Below, one piece after another: positions 1 to 12,853 of a stretch of DNA of 41,984 nt. Location: contig JAYTSD010000009.1 of the NCBI GenBank assembly GCA_043745805.1, forward strand, positions 1 to 41,984, read 5' to 3'. This DNA comes from Fibrobacteria bacterium (GTDB lineage: Bacteria > Fibrobacterota > Fibrobacteria > UBA11236). Within the stretch, counting starts at the first letter, position 1. The number at the start of each line of letters is the position of its first letter. The translations under genes and the position numbers were made by a program. Below the pieces are notes generated by a model. That model was given only the letters and a program-made list of their open reading frames with translations. It had not been told where the DNA came from and did no database searches.

Positions 1-59
1 GATACCACAAACCGTTTGAATTCTTCGGTAAAATTTCGCTGATTGACCAGTTCTTTCAT
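1..59 (-). CDS. 5' end of a hypothetical protein (MKELVNQRNFTEEFKRFVV...), first gene of putative cassette C; runs off the window
   Basis: Minus-strand ATG at 59 with GGAG (68-65) upstream. An in-frame alternative ATG lies at 83. It starts just after the minus-strand core GTTGTCC (96-90). Confidence 0.55.
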   Translation of the reverse strand, partial: MKELVNQRNFTEEFKRFVV

Positions 60-89
60 TATGTCTCCGAATTTTGTAAACATAATTCC

Positions 90-338
90 GGACAACACCG
101 TTGGCCCGATTTGCGAGGACGAGAACAAAGTGGGGCGCAAGCCCCCGGAGTGAATGTCCGCAGCAAGCAATGAAGATGGGGTGAGGCAAACTGACGTAGA
201 CCACAGGAGAAGACTTCAGAGAAAGTCAGTGCAGCCCGAACCCCAATCTGAATTGCCGGGCCAGCCCCAAAACCAATTTGGGCGAAGCCCCGGAGCGCGG
301 GTGGAAACCCGCGTGGAGCACCCTGGGCTGTGTTATAC
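90..338 (-). mobile_element. Long structured attC-like recombination site 1 (249 bp)
   Basis: Bounded by GGACAAC (90-96) and GTTATAC (332-338). Nested stems: TGGCCCG/CGGGCCA, ATGGGG/CCCC(A)AT, ACTGAC/GTCAGT, GGGC-GCAA-GCCC, GCGGGT-GGAA-ACCCGC. Shares GCAATGAAG, GACGTAGACC and CTGAATTGCCG with the site at 3676-3935. Confidence 0.75.
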
Positions 339-372
339 GCTGGTTTACCTCCCAGTTTTCTTGGGGGGTGGG
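332..372. repeat. Left terminal inverted-repeat arms of cassette B
   Basis: 332-351 GTTATACGCTGGTTTACCTC is the reverse complement of 3663-3682 at 18/20. 361-372 TTGGGGGGTGGG is the perfect reverse complement of 3594-3605. Confidence 0.9.
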
Positions 373-585
373 CTTGTCTTCTCTTCGCGCACCGGTTTTT
401 CCTGTTTTTGCATTACGGGGTTGGGTCCCCACTCTTACGAAATTGAAGTAATTACTTTCTTAAGGCATGGCGAAGGGCCGTAAGCATTTTGCCATGCGCA
501 CGTTTGTACCGCTTTTCTTTTCTTGTTGGCATAAGCAAAGAATGGTTATTTTTCTATAATTTAGGCCTTTTGAAGGCCATGGTAA

Positions 586-1695
586 ATGTTTCTTGATAAG
601 AACTGGTTGTCCAAGAAAACCAAACCCCAGGAAAAACAGGCTGGGAAAATAATTGGTATTGCAGATATTTTTTCTGGTTGCGGTGGGATGTCGCTTGGAG
701 CGATAGAGGCGTCAATGCTTCACAATCTTCGACCAAAGATTAAATTAGCCGTGGAAACAAACACCTACGCAAGTACGGTTTATAAAAACAACTTTTCTGA
801 TAAAATAAAAGCCTTATTAAATTCTAAAATTGAAACGATTATCGATTCCGATCCAGGCGAGCCGATTTCCAAAAAAGAAAAGCTCCTTAAAGCGAAAATC
901 GGAAAAATCCACATACTTCTTGCTGGCCCTCCTTGTCAGGGGCATTCACGTTTAAATAATTATACAAGATCTAATGACCCGCGAAACTCTTTGTATCTAA
1001 AAGCTGTGCGAATGGCAGAGATATTTAAGCCTGGTCTTGTAGTTATCGAAAATGTCGTTAATATTATTAAAGATAAAGATCGAGTAATTAACCAAAGTTC
1101 TTTGGCGCTTGAAAAAATTGGATACGAAGTAGAAAACTTAACTGTGCACCTTTCTAATTACGGAGTTGCCCAAAATCGAAAACGGCATATTCAAATTGCT
1201 ACTCTTAAAAGATTCAAAATTGACTTCTCTAACTATAAAGTAAAGTATGTTCTTTCTGATGTGATTTCGGATATTTTGGACGAATCTGTTCTTAAGGAGG
1301 GATTGTTTTTCTCTCCATCAAAAACCAAGCACCAAAACCGCATTGATTTTCTTTTCGAAAAAAATCTTTATGATTTACCAAACAGATTAAGACCCGATTG
1401 TCACAAAGATAAACATACCTACCCATCATGCTATGGCCGGTTAAATTGGAATAAACCATCTTCTACAATAACAAGAGGGTTTAGCACCATGGGACAAGGC
1501 AGGTTTTTACATCCCCTACGAAGAAGAACCTTAACTCCACATGAAGCGTGTAGAATTCAAGGCATACCAGATTATTTTGATTTTTCTAGTGTAGAAAAAA
1601 GAGGAGAGCTGCATCTGATGATCGCAAATGCGGTTCCACCAAGAATTATTGCCTGCATCATTGACCAATACATCAAAAATATTTTCAATAAATAA
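586..1695 (+). CDS. dcm: DNA (cytosine-5)-methyltransferase
   Basis: C5-MTase motifs in order: DIFSGCGG (I), GPPCQGHS (IV, catalytic PC), ENV (VI), QNRKR (VIII), RTLTPHEACRIQG (IX), IANAVPP (X). Confidence 0.95.
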   Translation: MFLDKNWLSKKTKPQEKQAGKIIGIADIFSGCGGMSLGAIEASMLHNLRPKIKLAVETNTYASTVYKNNFSDKIKALLNSKIETIIDSDPGEPISKKEKLLKAKIGKIHILLAGPPCQGHSRLNNYTRSNDPRNSLYLKAVRMAEIFKPGLVVIENVVNIIKDKDRVINQSSLALEKIGYEVENLTVHLSNYGVAQNRKRHIQIATLKRFKIDFSNYKVKYVLSDVISDILDESVLKEGLFFSPSKTKHQNRIDFLFEKNLYDLPNRLRPDCHKDKHTYPSCYGRLNWNKPSSTITRGFSTMGQGRFLHPLRRRTLTPHEACRIQGIPDYFDFSSVEKRGELHLMIANAVPPRIIACIIDQYIKNIFNK

Positions 1696-1705
1696 AGAGG
1701 TATAA

Positions 1706-2770
1706 ATGGCATCTGGAAAAAATATTTCCGCCGTCAGAAAAAAAGCCGCCGAAAAGCAGATCGTTGATAACATCAAGGTGTTTGACTACGATACTATTGA
1801 GTATCCGATCGAAGTAATTGTTGAAAAATATTCGACAGATTTAGAAGAAGAAGAGAATGACATTTATATCCCTGATTATCAAAGAGAATTTATTTGGAGC
1901 GAAAAACGCCGCTCCAAGTTTATCGAATCAATTTTGCTTGGCGTCCCCATTCCATATATATTTTTGGCCGACGTGGAAGGCCGCAAAGAAGTTGTCGACG
2001 GCTCACAACGAATTCGCACCTTAGATGTTTTTGTTAAGGACCAACACACAATTGAAAATTTAGATCGACTAACTGAGTTAAATGGATTCAAGTTTTCAGA
2101 CTTCGACCCTGTCAGGCAAAAAAGATTTCTTAATAAGAGCTTGAAAATGATTTTCTTATCGGAAAAAACAGATAGCATCGCTCGGCAAGATTTATTTGAA
2201 AGGATAAACACTGGTAGCGACGAGCTAAAACCGATGGAAGTCTTGAAAGGTAGTCAGGGAGGTAAATTTTACAGCTATCTTGAAGAGTGTAGTAAAAAGC
2301 CTTTGTTCAAAAAACTTTGTCCTATTAGCGACAAAACAAGTATTAGAGAAGAAGGTACTGAAAGAGCTTTAAGGTTTTTTGCATATTCAGAATCCTTGGA
2401 AGGCTATTCCGGAGTAGTAAGTGCTTTTATGGAAAAGTATATGAAAAAACGCTCAAGTAATTTTTCCACAACTGAGCGAAACAAGCTTGAGAAAAAATTC
2501 AACGATATGTTGGCCTTTGTAGATAGTCATTTTCCAAATGGTTTTAAGAAAAATAACAAAACTAAGTCAACTCCTAGGGTTCGTTTTGAGGCTATTTCAA
2601 TTGGTGTTTCCAAGGCATTGGAAAAAAAACCAAATTTGACTGTAACAAATGTTGATTGGCTTGAATCGGAGGAGTTTAAACATCACACTCGCTCAGATGC
2701 AGCTAATAATAAATCTAAACTTGAAGGACGAATTAATTTCGTAATGAACAAACTTTTGGGAAAAGTTTGA
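1706..2770 (+). CDS. DUF262 (GmrS/ParB-like) domain protein
   Basis: IPDYQREFIW, FIESILLGVPIP, VVDGSQR and FERIN motifs typical of DUF262. RBS AGAGG upstream. Confidence 0.9.
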   Translation: MASGKNISAVRKKAAEKQIVDNIKVFDYDTIEYPIEVIVEKYSTDLEEEENDIYIPDYQREFIWSEKRRSKFIESILLGVPIPYIFLADVEGRKEVVDGSQRIRTLDVFVKDQHTIENLDRLTELNGFKFSDFDPVRQKRFLNKSLKMIFLSEKTDSIARQDLFERINTGSDELKPMEVLKGSQGGKFYSYLEECSKKPLFKKLCPISDKTSIREEGTERALRFFAYSESLEGYSGVVSAFMEKYMKKRSSNFSTTERNKLEKKFNDMLAFVDSHFPNGFKKNNKTKSTPRVRFEAISIGVSKALEKKPNLTVTNVDWLESEEFKHHTRSDAANNKSKLEGRINFVMNKLLGKV

Positions 2771-3489
2771 TGAAATCAGTAATAGACGATTTTAATTTGA
2801 GAGCTAAGGAAATTGATATTTATTTTCAGTTCCTAAAAGATGTTGTTGACAAAGATTCGAAACTCAGAATATCGGACGGAAAAAAATGGCGCAAACAAAA
2901 ATTTCCGGACTCGGTTCAAAAAATTCTTAAGGCGAATTTATTTTTGCTCCTTTATAATTTGATTGAATCTTCTTTTACAAAATCTTTGGAGCATATTTGT
3001 AAAACTATCAATGATCACAATCTGATTTACCCTAAAACAATTCCCGAAATAAAAAAAATTTGGGTTAAAAAACAAGCGAAATATTTTGATCCGCCCAACA
3101 AGGGAGCTTCCCTCAGGAAAGAAGACCACTTTTTGGAGATGATTGATTCGATTTCAACTCAGGTTATTTCCATTCCATCTAGTCTGGATGATTCTGGTTA
3201 TGCTGGAAATATTGATGCAAAGAAAATACGTGAAATCGGAATGCTATATGGACTTTTCGTGACCAAGGAAGTGTTTCCTGTAAAAGGAAAGGAGCTTTTG
3301 TTGGTTAAAAACCGAAGAAATGCTTTAGCTCACGGAAATCAATCTTTTTCAGAATGCGGCAGAGACTATTCCATTAATCGTCTGGAAGAAATAAAAATTG
3401 ATTCGATTTCATATATGAAATTTATCCTAAACTCGTTTAAATTAAAGGTAAACAAGAAATATTTTCAGTCAAAAAGAGTTAAAAAGTGA
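2767..3489 (+). CDS. HEPN-domain protein (MAE_28990/MAE_18760-like), putative RNase effector
   Basis: LLLYNLIES N-terminal helix, GNID, and RNALAH (Rx4H) HEPN motif. Start overlaps the DUF262 stop. Confidence 0.85.
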   Translation: MMKSVIDDFNLRAKEIDIYFQFLKDVVDKDSKLRISDGKKWRKQKFPDSVQKILKANLFLLLYNLIESSFTKSLEHICKTINDHNLIYPKTIPEIKKIWVKKQAKYFDPPNKGASLRKEDHFLEMIDSISTQVISIPSSLDDSGYAGNIDAKKIREIGMLYGLFVTKEVFPVKGKELLLVKNRRNALAHGNQSFSECGRDYSINRLEEIKIDSISYMKFILNSFKLKVNKKYFQSKRVKK

Positions 3490-3593
3490 GATGAAAACCA
3501 ATTGGATTTCGAAAATGAATTACTTCATATGAATTCGAATTGATTCTTTCCGGTGAGCGTTTTTTCTTTCTTTTGGAATTCGCAATTCTCTTC

Positions 3594-3682
3594 CCCACCC
3601 CCCAACAAAATTCAGCTTTATAAAATTGTCGGGCAAACTGATAAGTTTGACCGGCAACATTTGAGGTAAACTTGCGTATAAC
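3594..3682. repeat. Right terminal inverted-repeat arms of cassette B with intervening hairpin
   Basis: CCCACCCCCCAA (3594-3605), hairpin TTGTCGGGCAAACT-GATA-AGTTTGACCGGCAA (3626-3657), CAACATTT (3655-3662), GAGGTAAACTTGCGTATAAC (3663-3682). Confidence 0.85.
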
Positions 3683-3935
3683 GTTCGCGCCAGTAGGAAG
3701 TGGGCTGCAAGGCCATTCTCGAAAGGTGAGGATGCGAATGAAGTGGTGCGCTATCGCACCCGAAATGAGCACCCGCAGCCTGCAATGAAGCTAACCTGAG
3801 AGCAAGCGGACGTAGACCTTTGTGAAGTTCGCGCCGCTCGAAGGTTAAGCTGAATTGCCGAGAAGGCCTTGCAGCCCATTTGCGAACCCGCAATGCGAAG
3901 CATGCCCGTGGGTTCCCTACTGGCGCTTGTTGCAC
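3676..3935 (-). mobile_element. Long structured attC-like recombination site 2 (260 bp)
   Basis: Bounded by GTATAAC (3676-3682) and GTTGCAC (3929-3935). Perfect stems GCGCCAGTAGG/CCTACTGGCGC (3687-3697/3916-3926) and TGGGCTGCAAGGCC/GGCCTTGCAGCCCA (3701-3714/3865-3878). Inner branched core is homologous to site 1. Confidence 0.85.
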
Positions 3936-3968
3936 GATCGTTTCGCATTTGCATTTATTTTAGGGGGG
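3929..3968. repeat. Left terminal inverted-repeat arms of cassette A
   Basis: GTTGCAC (3929-3935) vs GTGCAAC (5114-5120). TTTCGCATTT (3941-3950) vs AAATGCGAAA (5100-5109). ATTTATTTTAGGGGGG (3953-3968) vs CCCCCCTAAAATAAAT (5035-5050). All are perfect reverse complements. Confidence 0.9.
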
Positions 3969-3977
3969 TCTTCGAAT

Positions 3978-4976
3978 TTAATTGAAATCACCGGCAATTT
4001 CGACCTCGATGCGAGATAAGCTTCCTCTGATTCTCGGGCAAGGAAGGGACATTAAAATAGAGTCGATCATTAAGAATTTTTCTTTCGCGCCCGCAAACCT
4101 GACACAGTTCATTTTTTCCGAAAATAGTTTTAGTTTATTTGTTGGGAAAATGGAAAGCAAATTATTGGCGGTAAGAATTTCTATACCTTTTCCAAACTTT
4201 ATTTTTTGTGTGTTTCCAAATAAAATGATTTTTTCTTTCTCGGTTTTCAAGTATTGGATCATTGATTCATTCCGGATTAAATGGTACGAATCGGGATCAA
4301 CTGGAGATTTTCTACTCCAGTGCCCATCATTGTTATCACGGATATCCATCTGTTTCTCGCAGAGATTTAGTGCGTCATTTTCCCCCCAAGTTATAACCTC
4401 CATGTTTTTTAAGGAATAACCTTTTTCGTTGTCAATACGGTTTACACTGGGGATTTCCTTTTCTTGTCTTCCATTTTTATCCCACTCCGCAAATAAAATT
4501 TCAAATGGCGTACTTTTTATAATCCATTCAAAAAATGTTTCGAAAGAGAGTTTCGGAAGATCGTGTCCTCTTCTTTTGCTTCGCTCAATTATTTTTTGAA
4601 ACATTTTTTTGGCTTGAATTTGGAGTGGCTTCTCTCCGATTTTAGCAGCGTTTGCCTTGTTTTTTCGCTGTAGGGTCTTTTTCCGAATTGGGAGTGATTC
4701 AACGATAACCTTGATAATGCTTTCTTTTTCAAAGAAGTATGTAGGATCACGTGGGTCAAATTTGGTTTTAGTGATTTTGCAATATGCTGAACCCAGTGTT
4801 TCTACGTTTATCACTCTTAAAAATTTAACGAAATTGACCTCATCGTTGAAGTAGTCCATGTAATCGGATTTCGATTTTAAGAGGAGCGTGGAATTCTGTA
4901 TGCATCTTCCGTAGGTGATTTTTAACTCATCATTTTTCAGATCCTTGAATAATTGGTAGCATGAATATTGATTCAT
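3978..4976 (-). CDS. Hypothetical protein with central HNH-like (beta-beta-alpha) segment; cassette A gene
   Basis: PSVNRIDNEKGYSLKNMEVITWGEN resembles the SxDRID..GY...N....T..EN motif of phage HNH-type proteins. Start placed at MNQYSC (ATG 4976, AAGGA upstream) rather than the track's TTG at 5027. Confidence 0.6.
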   Translation of the reverse strand: MNQYSCYQLFKDLKNDELKITYGRCIQNSTLLLKSKSDYMDYFNDEVNFVKFLRVINVETLGSAYCKITKTKFDPRDPTYFFEKESIIKVIVESLPIRKKTLQRKNKANAAKIGEKPLQIQAKKMFQKIIERSKRRGHDLPKLSFETFFEWIIKSTPFEILFAEWDKNGRQEKEIPSVNRIDNEKGYSLKNMEVITWGENDALNLCEKQMDIRDNNDGHWSRKSPVDPDSYHLIRNESMIQYLKTEKEKIILFGNTQKIKFGKGIEILTANNLLSIFPTNKLKLFSEKMNCVRFAGAKEKFLMIDSILMSLPCPRIRGSLSRIEVEIAGDFN

Positions 4977-5034
4977 ATTCTTTTCCTTGCTTGAATTTTG
5001 TTTTAAAGTAGAAAAGGTAAGAATCAACTTTCTT

Positions 5035-5120
5035 CCCCCCTAAAATAAATCCAAACTCAACCTTGGCTTTTCGGCTGAAAGTCGGAAAGCCAACATTTTA
5101 AATGCGAAATGTTGTGCAAC
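5035..5120. repeat. Right terminal inverted-repeat arms of cassette A with intervening hairpin
   Basis: CCCCCCTAAAATAAAT (5035-5050), hairpin TTGGCTTTTCGGC-TGAAA-GTCGGAAAGCCAA (5063-5093), CAACATTT (5091-5098), AAATGCGAAA (5100-5109), GTGCAAC (5114-5120). Confidence 0.85.
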
Positions 5121-5132
5121 TCCTGCTTACGC
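5114..5132 (-). mobile_element. attI-like primary recombination site
   Basis: Minus strand reads GCGTAAG-CAGGA-GTTGCAC, a 7-5-7 layout like attI1 CCCTAAA-ACAAA-GTTRRRY. It lies immediately upstream of the divergent recombinase, and no long hairpin follows on the integrase side. Confidence 0.6.
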
Positions 5133-5140
5133 GCACCATA

Positions 5141-5169
5141 TTTACCAATAACATAAAAACAAGTATCTT
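5141..5169 (+). promoter_or_regulatory. Putative sigma70 promoter of the integrase (possibly leaderless mRNA)
   Basis: TTTACC (5141-5146), 17 nt spacer, TATCTT (5164-5169), then 7 nt to ATG 5177. No SD visible. Confidence 0.45.
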
Positions 5170-5176
5170 ACCCGTC

Positions 5177-6022
5177 ATGAAAGAAGACTTAATCCTATCC
5201 CTGACCCGCGAATTAAAGCGCCGAAATTACAGCCCACAAACCATAAAATCATATACTTCCGCTTTAAAGGACTATCAATCCTTTTACTTAGGCAATCCAT
5301 TAAATTATAGCGAAAAAGCAGTTCGCACTTTTTTGGAAAAACAACTCGAAAAAGGATTAGCGGCTACTACTGTCAACTTGCAAATGAACGCTTTAAAATT
5401 TTTCTATCGGGAAATCGCTCAAAATATCACAGCGATGGATAATATTAAATCGGCCAAGGAAGAGAAATCATTACCCGTCATTCTTTCCCAAAACGAAGTG
5501 CAAAAAATTTTAGAAGTTACCCTTAACCGAAAACATTATTTATTACTTGCTATTGCCTACGGAGCGGGTTTACGCGTTTCCGAAGTGGTAGCGTTAAAAG
5601 TGGGAGACATTGATTTTGAACGGAACTTAATAACGGTACGTCAAGGCAAAGGGATGAAGGATAGACAAACCTTATTGCCGTCTAATATTGTACCTGAGCT
5701 CACTCGGTTTTCACTAGGACGTAACACGCAAGAACCTTTATTCGAAAGTGAGCGCGGCGGGGCATTAAGTTTAAGGACTGCGCAAAAGGTTTTTGAGCAG
5801 GCTTGTGATAAAGCCAAAATCAAAAAACAAGCGAGCTTTCATACATTGCGTCACAGCTTTGCTACCCACCTTTTAGAGCAGGGAATCGACACCCGTTATG
5901 TGCAAGAATTATTAGGCCATGAAAACATCCGCACCACGCAATTGTACTTACATGTTACTAAGCATCACCTAAGCAAAATCGCTAGCCCTTTGAATTTTAT
6001 CGGATCAAAAAGCTTTGGCTAA
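5177..6022 (+). CDS. Tyrosine recombinase, integron-integrase-like, lacking the IntI-specific insertion
   Basis: N-terminal SAM-like domain (RRNYSPQTIKSY), LPVILS, and catalytic R (GLRVSE), K (GKGMKDR), HTLRH, LGH, Y (TTQLY). Start placed at MKEDL (281 aa). Confidence 0.92.
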   Translation: MKEDLILSLTRELKRRNYSPQTIKSYTSALKDYQSFYLGNPLNYSEKAVRTFLEKQLEKGLAATTVNLQMNALKFFYREIAQNITAMDNIKSAKEEKSLPVILSQNEVQKILEVTLNRKHYLLLAIAYGAGLRVSEVVALKVGDIDFERNLITVRQGKGMKDRQTLLPSNIVPELTRFSLGRNTQEPLFESERGGALSLRTAQKVFEQACDKAKIKKQASFHTLRHSFATHLLEQGIDTRYVQELLGHENIRTTQLYLHVTKHHLSKIASPLNFIGSKSFG

Positions 6023-6142
6023 TGGTGTCGGAGTTGGTTTCGCTAAAAAATCACTTTGATTGCCTTAAGAATTTTATTACATCCCTATAATATGAGCGCT
6101 TAAAAATCATGTTTTAGAGCGTTTAAAAAAGGAATAAATATT

Positions 6143-6589
6143 ATGCGCAATTTATTAGACTCAAAAGATAGAGAAGCCTTCATCCAACGTATTAAAAATT
6201 TAACCGCAGATCATCCCAGACAATGGGGTAAAATGACCATTGATCAAATGTTACATCATTTGAGTATGCCCATTAAAGTGGCCTTGGGTGAAATGACTAT
6301 GCCTGCCGATGGAAATGTTTTTCCACGATCTTTAATCAAGTGGATTATTTTAAGACTAAAAACATTTCCTCGTGGTAAAGCTCCAACGTCACCTGGAATG
6401 AAGGCGGAAGGCATTTTTGATTTTGAAATGAAGAAAGCAGAGTTAATTCGCTTAGTGGAAGACTTAGGAAAAAAAACGCAGTCTTCAAAATGGGGCAGTC
6501 ATCCCTTTTTCGGAAAAATGTCAGCGAAGCAATGGGGCCGATTATCCCATACTCATCTCAATCATCATCTCATGCAATTTAAAGCCTGA
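6143..6589 (+). CDS. DinB-like / DUF1569 family protein
   Basis: WGKMTIDQMLHHL, HPFFGKM and HLNHHLMQF motifs. AAGGA RBS. Confidence 0.85.
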   Translation: MRNLLDSKDREAFIQRIKNLTADHPRQWGKMTIDQMLHHLSMPIKVALGEMTMPADGNVFPRSLIKWIILRLKTFPRGKAPTSPGMKAEGIFDFEMKKAELIRLVEDLGKKTQSSKWGSHPFFGKMSAKQWGRLSHTHLNHHLMQFKA

Positions 6590-6630
6590 AAAACTAAGTA
6601 ACCTAAGTAATATTTGGAAAAGAGGACTTT

Positions 6631-6966
6631 ATGAATTTTCAGGACTTAGCTAAAAAAGACTGTAGCGCCTGCAAGATAGCTGTTTACCCATTAGAAGGAA
6701 ATGAGCTTAAAGAACTTTTGCTTACTTTGGAACATGGATGGTCGGTAATCAGCGAGCATCATTTAGAAAAATCATTCGCTTTTAAAAACTTTGCCGAAGC
6801 TTTGGATTTCACCAATAAAATGGGTGCTGTGGCAGAGGCGCAAGATCATCACCCCGATATTTATTTGGCTTGGGGAAAAGTAAGGGTAACCTTGTGGTCA
6901 CATAAAATTGACGGCCTTTCCGAAAGTGATTTCGTATTGGCCGCCAAGATTGAAGAATTATTGTAA
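6631..6966 (+). CDS. phhB: Pterin-4-alpha-carbinolamine dehydratase
   Basis: FKNF..A..F, DHHPDI, WSHKIDGLSESDFVLAAKI. Confidence 0.92.
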   Translation: MNFQDLAKKDCSACKIAVYPLEGNELKELLLTLEHGWSVISEHHLEKSFAFKNFAEALDFTNKMGAVAEAQDHHPDIYLAWGKVRVTLWSHKIDGLSESDFVLAAKIEELL

Positions 6967-7236
6967 AAGATTAGTAGTAGAATTTTAAGACCATTCTTAG
7001 CAAGGATGGATTTATTTTCAGCGCTTTTGTGGACATTTGTATCCAGATTTTTTAATCCCCTAGCCAACTCTTATCAGCTATAAATCAAAAGCACAATTAT
7101 ATTGGCATAGGGTTACAAATATCCATTTATGGTTTTGCAATAATTTATTGTGCAATTCATGAATTACACTTACACGTTAATTGAAACGATGACTGAATAT
7201 TAAACTTTATTCTCAATTCAGTCGGAGGAGGCAGTT

Positions 7237-9129
7237 GTGAAAAATGTCTTAACCATAAACAAGACGCTATTTGTTTACACCTTGGCCGCAGCCATAACCA
7301 TGGCCGGCAAAGCCCAGGCGGCTTCCTACTATGTTAATTCGACGGGCGGCAACGATTCCAATGCAGGAACCAGCAGCGCTGCCTCTTGGATGAGTATCAC
7401 TAAGCTCAACAATGTTACCTTCAAGGCAGGTGACAAAATCCTGTTGAAGTCCGGTTCTGCTTGGACCATGGCTTCCGGCACGGAAGTGCATCCTTTGGGT
7501 TCCGGTGCCTCGGGTAACCCAATTGTGATTGATATGTATGAAGGAACTGTCAAGCCCATCATTAACGGCAACGGAGCGGTGACTTCTAATGCTTTCCACC
7601 TTGCCAACCAGCAGTACTGGGAAATCAACAATCTCGAGATCACTAACAAGGGTAACATTTCGGATAACAATGGATCCGATGCAAATCACAAAATCGGTGT
7701 CTATATTGAAGCATCTTCTGGTATTATCAACCACGTTTATTTAAAGAACCTGAACGTCCACGATGTTTACGGTGCACTGGGTAAGGACGCGGGTGGTAAG
7801 TTCGACGGCGGCATTATCATGGAGAGCACAAGCTCATCTAGTCACTTTAATGACATTCTCATCGATGGTTGCACGGTCATGAATGCGGACCGCCAGGGTA
7901 TCACCGTGGGGGACATCGCGGGCAACACTGGTAGGAGCCTCACGGGCATTAATTATTCTACGAATGTGATCATCCAGAATTGCGTGGTGGACCATCCCGG
8001 TGGCGACGGTATCTTAATGTTCACATGCCAGGGTGCAATCGTTCAACACAATCTCGCTATCCACACAAACAACAAAAGCGACTATGCTTGCTCGATGTGG
8101 CCTTGGCAAAGCAATGAAACACACTTTCAGTATAATGAAGGATATGACGCCCAAGGGATAAAGAGTGGTGCGCAAGACGACGGCACCTTCGGGGATGCCG
8201 ACGGGGACAATGGTACCTCATACTACGATTGGAACTACACCCACGACAATGCAGGTGGTGGATACATGATTTGCAACAGCACAGGTGTGGGCACCAGTCC
8301 TCCCCAGGCCACCTACATCCGCTACAATGTCAGCCACAACGAAATGGCCTATGCCATTTACTTCAGTTCGGCCAAAGCCGCCACCAACATCTTTATCTAC
8401 AACAACACCTTCTACCAGCCCAGTGGCTGTAAGGGCGCCATCTTTCACTCTGATGATGGCGGCGGCACTTTCACCGCCAAGAACAATATCTTCGTGAACC
8501 TAGGTTCGGGCAATGGTTTCGACAATCTTGTTTCCGGCACTCGCAACTTGGACTATAACGTTTTCTATGGCAGTAACTTCAGCGTAACGGAAACCGACAA
8601 AGACATTCATAAGTTGATGACGGATCCCAAACTCAATGGCGCAAGCACAGCTACGATCAACACTCGCTACACCGATGTGATCAACAATCATCTATTCCAG
8701 TTGCAAGCGGGTTCTCCAGCCATCGCTTCCGGCGTTGTGATCAGTAGTGGAAATCTCAGCAAGGATTTTTGGGGTAACACTATCTCCACCACAGCTCCTA
8801 GCCGCGGCGCGCATGAACATAGCGCAACTACTCGCGTGATTCCGCACAATGCCTTAGTCGAAACGGATCGCGATTTCACTTTTGATGCCTCCGTGAGTAG
8901 AGCCTTGATCACCGTTACATATTCTCAGAAAAAATCGGGCTATGTTTCATTTTGGCTGGTGAATTCGGAAGGCAAGAAAATTGCGACATTGGCCAACGGT
9001 TATTTGGGTGCTGGGGTCGTGATGCAGAAGAGTGTGTCTACTTCCGCTTTAACATCCGGACCTTACTTCATTCAAGGTAACGTTCAAGGAACGCCTTTGC
9101 GAAAACAAATCTCACTCGTCAACTTATAA
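7237..9129 (+). CDS. Secreted right-handed parallel beta-helix protein (pectin-lyase-like fold) with T9SS-like C-terminal domain
   Basis: Signal peptide (AQA), YYVNSTGGNDSNAGTS..W N-terminal motif, Asn/Gly-rich helix repeats, LQAGSPAI..G..DFWGN, C-terminal NSEGKKIATL...SGPYFI. GGAGG RBS before GTG. Confidence 0.8.
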   Translation: MKNVLTINKTLFVYTLAAAITMAGKAQAASYYVNSTGGNDSNAGTSSAASWMSITKLNNVTFKAGDKILLKSGSAWTMASGTEVHPLGSGASGNPIVIDMYEGTVKPIINGNGAVTSNAFHLANQQYWEINNLEITNKGNISDNNGSDANHKIGVYIEASSGIINHVYLKNLNVHDVYGALGKDAGGKFDGGIIMESTSSSSHFNDILIDGCTVMNADRQGITVGDIAGNTGRSLTGINYSTNVIIQNCVVDHPGGDGILMFTCQGAIVQHNLAIHTNNKSDYACSMWPWQSNETHFQYNEGYDAQGIKSGAQDDGTFGDADGDNGTSYYDWNYTHDNAGGGYMICNSTGVGTSPPQATYIRYNVSHNEMAYAIYFSSAKAATNIFIYNNTFYQPSGCKGAIFHSDDGGGTFTAKNNIFVNLGSGNGFDNLVSGTRNLDYNVFYGSNFSVTETDKDIHKLMTDPKLNGASTATINTRYTDVINNHLFQLQAGSPAIASGVVISSGNLSKDFWGNTISTTAPSRGAHEHSATTRVIPHNALVETDRDFTFDASVSRALITVTYSQKKSGYVSFWLVNSEGKKIATLANGYLGAGVVMQKSVSTSALTSGPYFIQGNVQGTPLRKQISLVNL

Positions 9130-10641: not shown

Positions 10642-12853
<2,212 letters not shown>

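Follow-up and report, generated by a model that had tools for sequence, protein, structure and literature searches.

The attC sites at which integron cassettes recombine are simple imperfect hairpins of about 55–140 nt, with extrahelical bases and little sequence conservation. An insertion of about 35–40 aa near patch III of the integrase IntI is regarded as a defining and indispensable trait of integron integrases; MacDonald et al. reportedly found in 2006 that it reads the extrahelical bases. Here, we analyzed a 41,984-nt stretch of DNA from a Fibrobacteria bacterium (assembly GCA_043745805.1, contig JAYTSD010000009.1, positions 1 to 41,984 of the forward strand; the window). It carries a gene, Int1, for an IntI-like tyrosine recombinase that lacks this insertion and heads an array of cassettes separated by large structured sites. 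We consider it likely that the window holds a chromosomal integron-like cassette platform, a variant of the integron, with Int1 as its site-specific recombinase. A second recombinase of the same genome, the paralogue Int2, heads another such array.

Related cases have been described. In the available part of Cury et al. 2016 (PMC4889954), 50 recombinases lacking intI_Cterm were counted near attC sites among 18,808; these were judged to be proteins that ‘are not IntI’ and had no more than two attC sites in their vicinity. As far as that part goes, these cases share with ours a recombinase without the IntI region beside attC-like sites, whereas the arrays described here reach a considerable length (10 or more sites within 20 kb in the related genome G013) and occur repeatedly within a family. 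The same portion of the paper mentions ‘inverted integrase’ integrons, in which the integrase points with the cassettes, as Int2-type genes do. From Weinberg et al. 2017 (PMC5737381), in the sections available, the DUF1874 motif is known as a possible unusual complex attC; those authors saw no integrase where its arrays probably begin (the 5′ end). That motif resembles our sites in its multiple stems, conserved internal-loop bases, and occurrence in consecutive intergenic regions. It differs in that an integrase is adjacent here and that our sites match no Rfam family, a comparison that covers DUF1874 if the motif is in release 15. Smyshlyaev et al. 2021 (PMC8138268), also available in part, called the insertion ‘not fully conserved’ in an integron-like subgroup and defined a Xer-related subgroup, ‘Cand’. 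Our literature search found no description of such an insertion-less platform; the supplements of the Cury, Smyshlyaev, and Weinberg papers may hold relatives of the clade.

Compared with integrons (above all sedentary chromosomal ones and the ‘inverted integrase’ group) and their attI and attC sites, the locus has the same overall anatomy: a tyrosine recombinase at one end of a co-oriented array, RYYYAAC and GTTRRRY boxes with the predicted crossover at a conserved GTT, a cassette-specific complementarity shifted by one site, cargo of the defense or toxin type, and sites that are homogeneous within a lineage. The differences lie in the recombinase and the sites. Int1 has no IntI block and stays under the cut-off of the integron integrase model TIGR02249. 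The sites measure 260–330 nt in Fibrobacteria and about 70–200 nt in metagenome relatives, and have a branched conserved core in place of a variable hairpin. No conserved single-base bulge stands by the R box, and the complementarity of the cassette ends extends 20–60 nt past the boxes.

The initial annotation, made from the sequence of the window, had claimed that Int1 lacks the IntI-specific insertion and retains all catalytic residues; both statements withstood comparison. The stretches it had quoted (LPVILS, KGMKDR, QTLLPSNIVPELTRFSLGRNTQEPLFESERGGALSLRTAQKVF, and HTLRHSFATHLLE) are all present in the Int1 translation. Pfam recognized both domains expected of a simple tyrosine recombinase, Phage_integrase with 143 bits and Phage_int_SAM_4 with 52 bits. 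The best sequence match in the PDB was the V. cholerae integron integrase IntI4/VchIntIA (2a3v, 153.6 bits), followed by archaeal XerA (4a8e, 148 bits). Int1 aligned with 2a3v in two stretches (query 4–202 with chain 4–205, and query 199–273 with chain 244–318), leaving chain residues 206–243 (about 38) unmatched. We then compared 14 sequences (alignment A3): Int1, Int2, seven further insertion-less proteins, and five canonical Fibrobacterota IntI. A 41–43-residue block with ALxxKYP and WxWQxVFP motifs was present in the five canonical proteins and gapped in Int1, Int2, and the other seven. The catalytic residues R133, K158/K161, H222, R225, H248, and Y257 were invariant in 14/14 rows. The AlphaFold2 model of Int1 (predicted local distance difference test score, pLDDT, 92.4) showed only short strands at residues 180–198, and its closest solved fold was again 2a3v (template modeling score, TM, 0.81; E = 2.9e-17).

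TIGR02249 matched Int1 in two segments with a score of 216 bits (cut-off 265), and a canonical IntI from a relative reached 377 bits; NF011946 gave 140 bits against 435. The XerC and XerD models scored 194 and 187 bits, far under their cut-offs of 335 and 330. Only NF040815 (recomb_XerA_Arch) was marginally passed by Int1 (220.8 bits, cut-off 220), with Int2 below it at 199 bits. The NCBI name of this model is ‘site-specific tyrosine recombinase/integron integrase’, a label that settles nothing about the function of Int1.

The annotation had also placed Int1 at the head of an apparent cassette array, and the window bears this out: two cassettes with complementary ends and two structured sites are located upstream of the gene. 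The sites open with RYYYAAC (the R″ box) and close with GTTRRRY (the R′ box), as seen in 41 aligned copies and in folds. The features are as follows.

5177–6022, plus strand: Int1 (281 aa), the IntI-like tyrosine recombinase that lacks the insertion
5114–5120, minus strand: putative attI-type crossover box, GTTGCAC, 57 nt upstream of the Int1 start codon
3936–5120, minus strand: cassette 1, with its 3′ flank at 3936–3968 and its 5′ flank at 5035–5120
3978–5027, minus strand: open reading frame (ORF) of cassette 1, 349 aa
3948–3968 and 5035–5055: inverted repeat I4, 21 nt, 95% identical, flanking cassette 1
3676–3935, minus strand: site e2, a complete attC-like structured site of 260 nt
339–3675, minus strand: cassette 2, with complementary end flanks at 339–372 and 3594–3675
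332–351 and 3663–3682: inverted repeat I9, 90% identical, flanking cassette 2
356–372 and 3594–3610: inverted repeat I11, 94% identical, flanking cassette 2
2767–3489, plus strand: HEPN protein of cassette 2 (Pfam HEPN_MAE_28990, 72 bits)
1706–2770, plus strand: GmrSD_N protein of cassette 2 (Pfam GmrSD_N, 90.5 bits)
586–1695, plus strand: Dcm methylase of cassette 2 (Pfam DNA_methylase, 157 bits)
101–338, minus strand: site e1, a truncated attC-like structured site with its R″ box at 332–338
1–100, strand not assigned: repeat end resembling an insertion sequence (IS), which truncates site e1, the distal one, and conceals the remainder of the array

Site e2 runs from the R″ box (3929–3935) through a multi-helix core and NAAC to the R′ box (3676–3682). 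Folded as single-stranded DNA with its flanks (3585–3975), it gave −92.6 kcal/mol as compared with −56.8 ± 4.1 in shuffled sequences (z = −8.7). Its scores were 105 bits with nhmmer and 104 bits with the covariance model R1, and it is itself a row of the covariation alignments A1 and A4. Site e1 was matched by nhmmer at 357–101 on the minus strand (model positions 4–247 of 296, 196 bits). The 349-aa ORF of cassette 1 matched no Pfam family. Inverted repeats I4, I9, and I11 flank the cassettes rather than the sites. From the box at 5114–5120 onward, the minus strand can pair with the 3′-terminal part of cassette 1 (3929–3949), and the same half-site layout follows Int2 (locus L012, near 9644). 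On this sequence evidence, 5114–5120 would be an attI-type crossover box.

At the cassette ends, the 11 nt located 5′ of the R″ AAC of each site were compared with the 11 nt that follow the GTT in the preceding site (site n+1 versus site n). On average, adjacent sites showed complementarity at 7.0/11 positions (n = 17), and 13/17 scored at least 6. The corresponding values were 4.2/11 against the site’s own R′ flank (n = 37) and 3.8/11 across loci (n = 1319). The four low values belong to site pairs 311, 2339, 4125, and 6242 nt apart; short sites lie between the members of the 4125-nt pair (L012). Such a one-site shift is the expected outcome of circular-cassette insertion at AAC|GTT, as in integrons. 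Beside both Int1 and Int2 there is a half-site, a GTT box without a core, from which the sequence continues as the complement of the first cassette’s 3′ end. Given these coreless half-sites beside the integrases, the crossover would fall 3′ of the core. The attI-type boxes and the sites have only GTT and a purine-rich tail in common, and the sites among themselves only AACGTT. Cassettes common to several genomes were essentially absent, apart from one gene at about 73% in G013 and G043; boundaries can therefore not be mapped through the same cassette in different contexts.

The site has a conserved secondary structure. The consensus from 40 full site copies of nine genomes comprises 56 base pairs in 10 helices; pairing holds in 93.4% of 2221 cells, versus 70.4% in shuffles and 36–45% with slid partners. 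Compensatory changes occur in 48/56 pairs, and 0/500 shuffles matched the real alignment on any of five measures. At the base of the structure, the YAAC/GTTR box is followed by an asymmetric loop (5′ strand, 1–3 nt; 3′ strand, NAAC), beyond which a helix of 10–13 bp begins. Within these 40 folds, we did not see a conserved single-base bulge beside the R box. Conserved CCCAAAT and ACTTC motifs are unpaired at the first junction of the core. A stem without conserved bulges fits the absence of an insertion that would read extrahelical bases, a link that is suggestive rather than proven.

The same organization recurs on contig C4 of this genome, where the array of Int2 (L012, G000:C4, 8664–17150) lies on the strand of its integrase and holds at least five cassettes bounded by the same boxes. 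They carry a 211-aa ORF with SieB, a 241-aa ORF, a 90-aa ORF with RES, a 387-aa ORF, and a 197-aa ORF; several of these ORFs match no family. The sites of this array span 120–375 nt, the shortest being 123 nt long (12590–12712); judged from these lengths, the core seems replaceable by a short hairpin. A profile of the roughly 290-nt core matched both arrays and the neighborhoods of Int homologues in G002, G004, G013, and G027. With a covariance model that covers the 3′ half of the site, the core was detected in 21/32 genomes of the family, including this one (20/31 without the unpublished G021). By genus, it was found in 15/15, 2/2, 1/1, and 1/1 genomes, and weakly in 1/12 of genus g4, whose genomes are small. 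There are 2–19 copies per genome, always co-oriented within a contig, and at least 10 of them extend over 20 kb after the G013 integrase. Among the 13 Int2-type loci whose sequence extends about 1 kb or more beyond the gene, eight have cores downstream in the same direction. Synteny between G004 and G008 holds for 8 kb and stops about 100 nt past the integrase. In G027, repeats of about 270–310 nt, 86–87% identical, are found near further Int homologues (in tandem at 11278–11875 of L039 on contig C28, and about 1 kb apart at 924–2225 of L036 on C21). The core profile does not match them, and they may represent another site type.

An alignment of the nearest recombinases of about 270 aa was used to retrieve 80 metagenome loci. 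The Fibrobacteria core profile (a hidden Markov model) matched none of the 80; their sites were found via cassette-end repeats and a motif regular expression. This expression gave 25 matches in 17/80 loci, as compared with 0.35 in shuffles, and 23/25 were upstream and antisense. Sequence of 1.8 kb or more precedes the integrase in 12 of the 19 best-matching loci, and antisense sites are present there in 11 of these 12. The closest relatives (44–53% identical to Int1) have upstream antisense arrays with the short sites mentioned above, built in the order R″ box, A, helix, CCCAAAT, ACTTC, return strand, NAAC, and GTTRRRY. Their cassette ends are complementary as well, and in 7/37 metagenome loci an inverted repeat directly adjoins the integrase at its 5′ end. 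Structured repeats and variable cargo, the company that the annotation had predicted for homologues of the integrase, thus accompany them in the same genome, in relatives, and in 17/80 metagenome loci. One metagenome contig (L143) contains a direct duplication of 1.2 kb (1598–2783 and 5579–6764, 90% identical) spanning the greater part of its integrase gene.

The window corresponds to contig C9 in a genome of 3.95 Mb whose GyrB is 77–83% identical to proteins named from Fibrobacteria metagenome-assembled genomes (MAGs). Int2 is 41% identical to Int1, and XerC- and XerD-like genes lie on contigs C46 and C45 (279 and 303 bits). No canonical IntI was found in this genome. An initial scan of genome contigs with Int1 returned 25 loci, mostly distant and uninformative about the array. 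Int homologues (E ≤ 1e-30) occur patchily, in 18/41 relatives, and the proteins nearest to Int1 are recombinases of about 270 aa, 50–57% identical, mostly named from Patescibacteria. Among 151 Fibrobacterota genomes, 29 have a canonical IntI above the cut-off, including six from the family of this genome (L102, L103, L104, L107, L109, and L110; 365–377 bits); G012 has two adjacent copies. The large core was found on no contig bearing a canonical IntI in these six genomes, and the IntI of G009 is on a different contig from the four-core array of that genome.

In a quick maximum-likelihood tree of 73 rows, canonical IntI formed one clade of 25 rows (Shimodaira–Hasegawa-like approximate likelihood ratio test, SH-aLRT, 99) that excludes Int1 and Int2. 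Int2 belonged to a Fibrobacteria clade of 15 rows (support 94), and Int1, together with its 63% relative from G026, to a Patescibacteria-type clade (support 97). The Int2 clade, the Int1 clade, and IntI met in an unresolved three-way split (support 83), and a topology holding Int1 together with the Int2 clade was not rejected (approximately unbiased, AU, test, p = 0.46). The XerC/D-like genes fell outside this group; Int1 does not group with the housekeeping XerC/D. The annotation had suggested a sister clade to IntI; the grouping with IntI apart from XerC/D stands, and the three-way split does not go as far as sisterhood. Two insertion-less proteins placed beside IntI were rejected as further cases. 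L044, from a Gammaproteobacteria MAG, has no recognizable array and is followed downstream by low-complexity repeats and a run of N only; L045, from Cytophagales, has no recognizable array and one 33-nt repeat.

According to the mechanism we propose, the array would run from the attI-type site away from Int1, on the opposite strand. Cassettes would be excised as circles through recombination between two structured sites, and the circles would be inserted at attI or at another site, with strand exchange at the invariant AAC|GTT. As in integrons, the sites would be recognized as folded structures and not by their sequence. We infer that Int1 catalyzes the exchange at AAC|GTT, that it acts on a single strand in folded form, and that the extrahelical bases normally read by the IntI insertion are replaced by the site’s conserved junction.

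Several observations weigh against an integron-like platform operated in this way. The indicators of the folding strand disagree: 170 G–T versus 89 A–C cells favor the ORF-sense strand, and the DNA minimum free energy favors the other strand in 28/41 copies. Nearly all pairs of the 40-row alignment are Watson–Crick, and the strong conservation of the core, unpaired stretches included, also suits a structured RNA. The three genes of cassette 2 are antisense to the array. Five of the 13 Int2-type loci have no core downstream, L036 with 6.9 kb of sequence beyond the gene and the other four with 1.0–1.7 kb. Conversely, G009 has four co-oriented cores and no integrase homologue in the 12 kb covered (L078, G009:C18:38000–50000, 4602–8325), an arrangement suggestive of an array without integrase. 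In the quick tree, Int1 and Int2 fall into separate sub-clades, and the canonical IntI of the six same-family genomes may act as a helper elsewhere. Finally, contigs from the four DNA sequencing runs that contain the stretch, sediment runs of one study, showed no recombination joints over 1–7200; no RNA run was listed as containing the stretch. Loose contig ends at 334 and 336 were merely paralogous cores of contig C4. The jointless contigs bear neither way on excision or expression.

Alternatively, the platform could be real but served by a Xer-like recombinase acting on double-stranded sites, with both strands exchanged via a Holliday junction and the structures having an accessory role, e.g., the binding of an architectural protein. 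Int1 resembles XerC/XerD, archaeal XerA, and the ‘Cand’ subgroup in its length (about 270–280 aa), its two domains, the missing insertion, its NF040815 score at the cut-off (220.8 versus 220), and a nearby dif-like palindrome. One such palindrome (5091–5114) lies with a hairpin in the 5′ flank of cassette 1, just inside the cassette, and another comes after Int2. The available part of Smyshlyaev et al. (PMC8138268) calls the nearest Int1 relatives, the Patescibacteria recombinases of about 270 aa, Xer-related, and a strand preference would not be visible where nearly all pairs are Watson–Crick. Unlike XerC/XerD and XerA, Int1 is patchily distributed (18/41), is located at a synteny break beside variable cargo, and coexists with separate XerC/D-like genes in its genome. 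Classical tyrosine-recombinase exchange requires an identical overlap of 6–8 bp in both partners, whereas the attI-type boxes and sites offer no common sequence beyond GTT with its purine-rich tail, and the sites among themselves no more than AACGTT. Moreover, selection on intrastrand pairing in 48/56 pairs has no obvious reason in a purely duplex site. We therefore regard this alternative as unlikely.

The repeats could instead be structured non-coding RNAs (3′ untranslated region stabilizers, terminators, or regulatory RNAs), with Int1 as an unrelated island or Xer-like neighbor. The core is long (260–330 nt), G+C-rich, and multi-helix, with conserved unpaired stretches, like large non-coding RNAs, and G–T pairs are commoner on the ORF-sense strand (170 versus 89). 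Rfam gave no match at the gathering score in the whole window, a single chance-level small RNA match at E-value thresholds in the C4 array (L012, 11000–17150), and only tRNAs in five metagenome loci, so the core could be an undescribed RNA. An RNA role, however, does not account for complementarity between the ends of the cassette instead of the repeat, for the RYYYAAC and GTTRRRY boxes at the repeat ends, or for the coreless half-site by each integrase. The pairing with insertion-less integrases also recurs in two lineages and in metagenome contigs with different site lengths. We find this explanation rather improbable; an RNA function in addition to recombination is possible. MITE-like (miniature inverted-repeat transposable element) mobile elements, non-autonomous and unlinked to Int1, or homologous recombination between conserved cores would suit copies up to 97% identical inside one genome, core fragments on other contigs (C17, C29, C39, and C6), and the frequent contig breaks at cores, but are highly improbable, since all copies on one contig point the same way, the repeats are confined to positions between cassettes in arrays that start at the integrase, insertion of a hairpin element would make the element’s own ends complementary (the opposite is observed), and homologous exchange would not yield complementary gene flanks.

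Further observations concern the window itself. Bases 60–99 recur at the ends of contigs C48, C10, C15, C17, and C5 (92–100% identity), and several differing continuations at position 99 in the sequencing-run contigs correspond to other copies of this IS-like end; 1–100 is probably the end of an insertion sequence. The 5′ flank of each cassette contains a hairpin of 45–55 nt (3611–3662 and 5056–5099), after which, in the array direction, come a T-rich stretch and a run of G; this hairpin could serve as a terminator or insulator where the cassette begins. A loose genome scan for end motifs (T-run then G-run, or C-run then A-run) gave 753 matches and did not discriminate. Within cassette 2, by its 3′ flank, 359–509 is 83% identical to a stretch beside a core in G045 (L081, 2371–2521), and the sites may carry a further conserved module outside the core.

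The integron-like platform headed by Int1 may belong to something larger. The arrays of Fibrobacteria and of small-genome bacteria with Int1-type recombinases of about 270 aa could form a second, old, and widespread integron lineage, in which the insertion was never present or not needed and three-way-junction sites with unpaired CCCAAAT and ACTTC are read instead of extrahelical bases; on this extension our judgment is evenly balanced. If it is true, the cassette platform would predate the insertion, and standard integron finders would overlook a large share of natural cassette arrays. A recurrent platform with integron anatomy and without the insertion would make cassette capture independent of the IntI segment and points to another mode of reading folded DNA. 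It would also reveal arrays with genes of the defense or toxin type that are absent from current surveys, in phyla in which arrays of this kind would escape detection. As a new structure-specific recombination system, the platform would bear on the origin of integrons from Xer-like enzymes.

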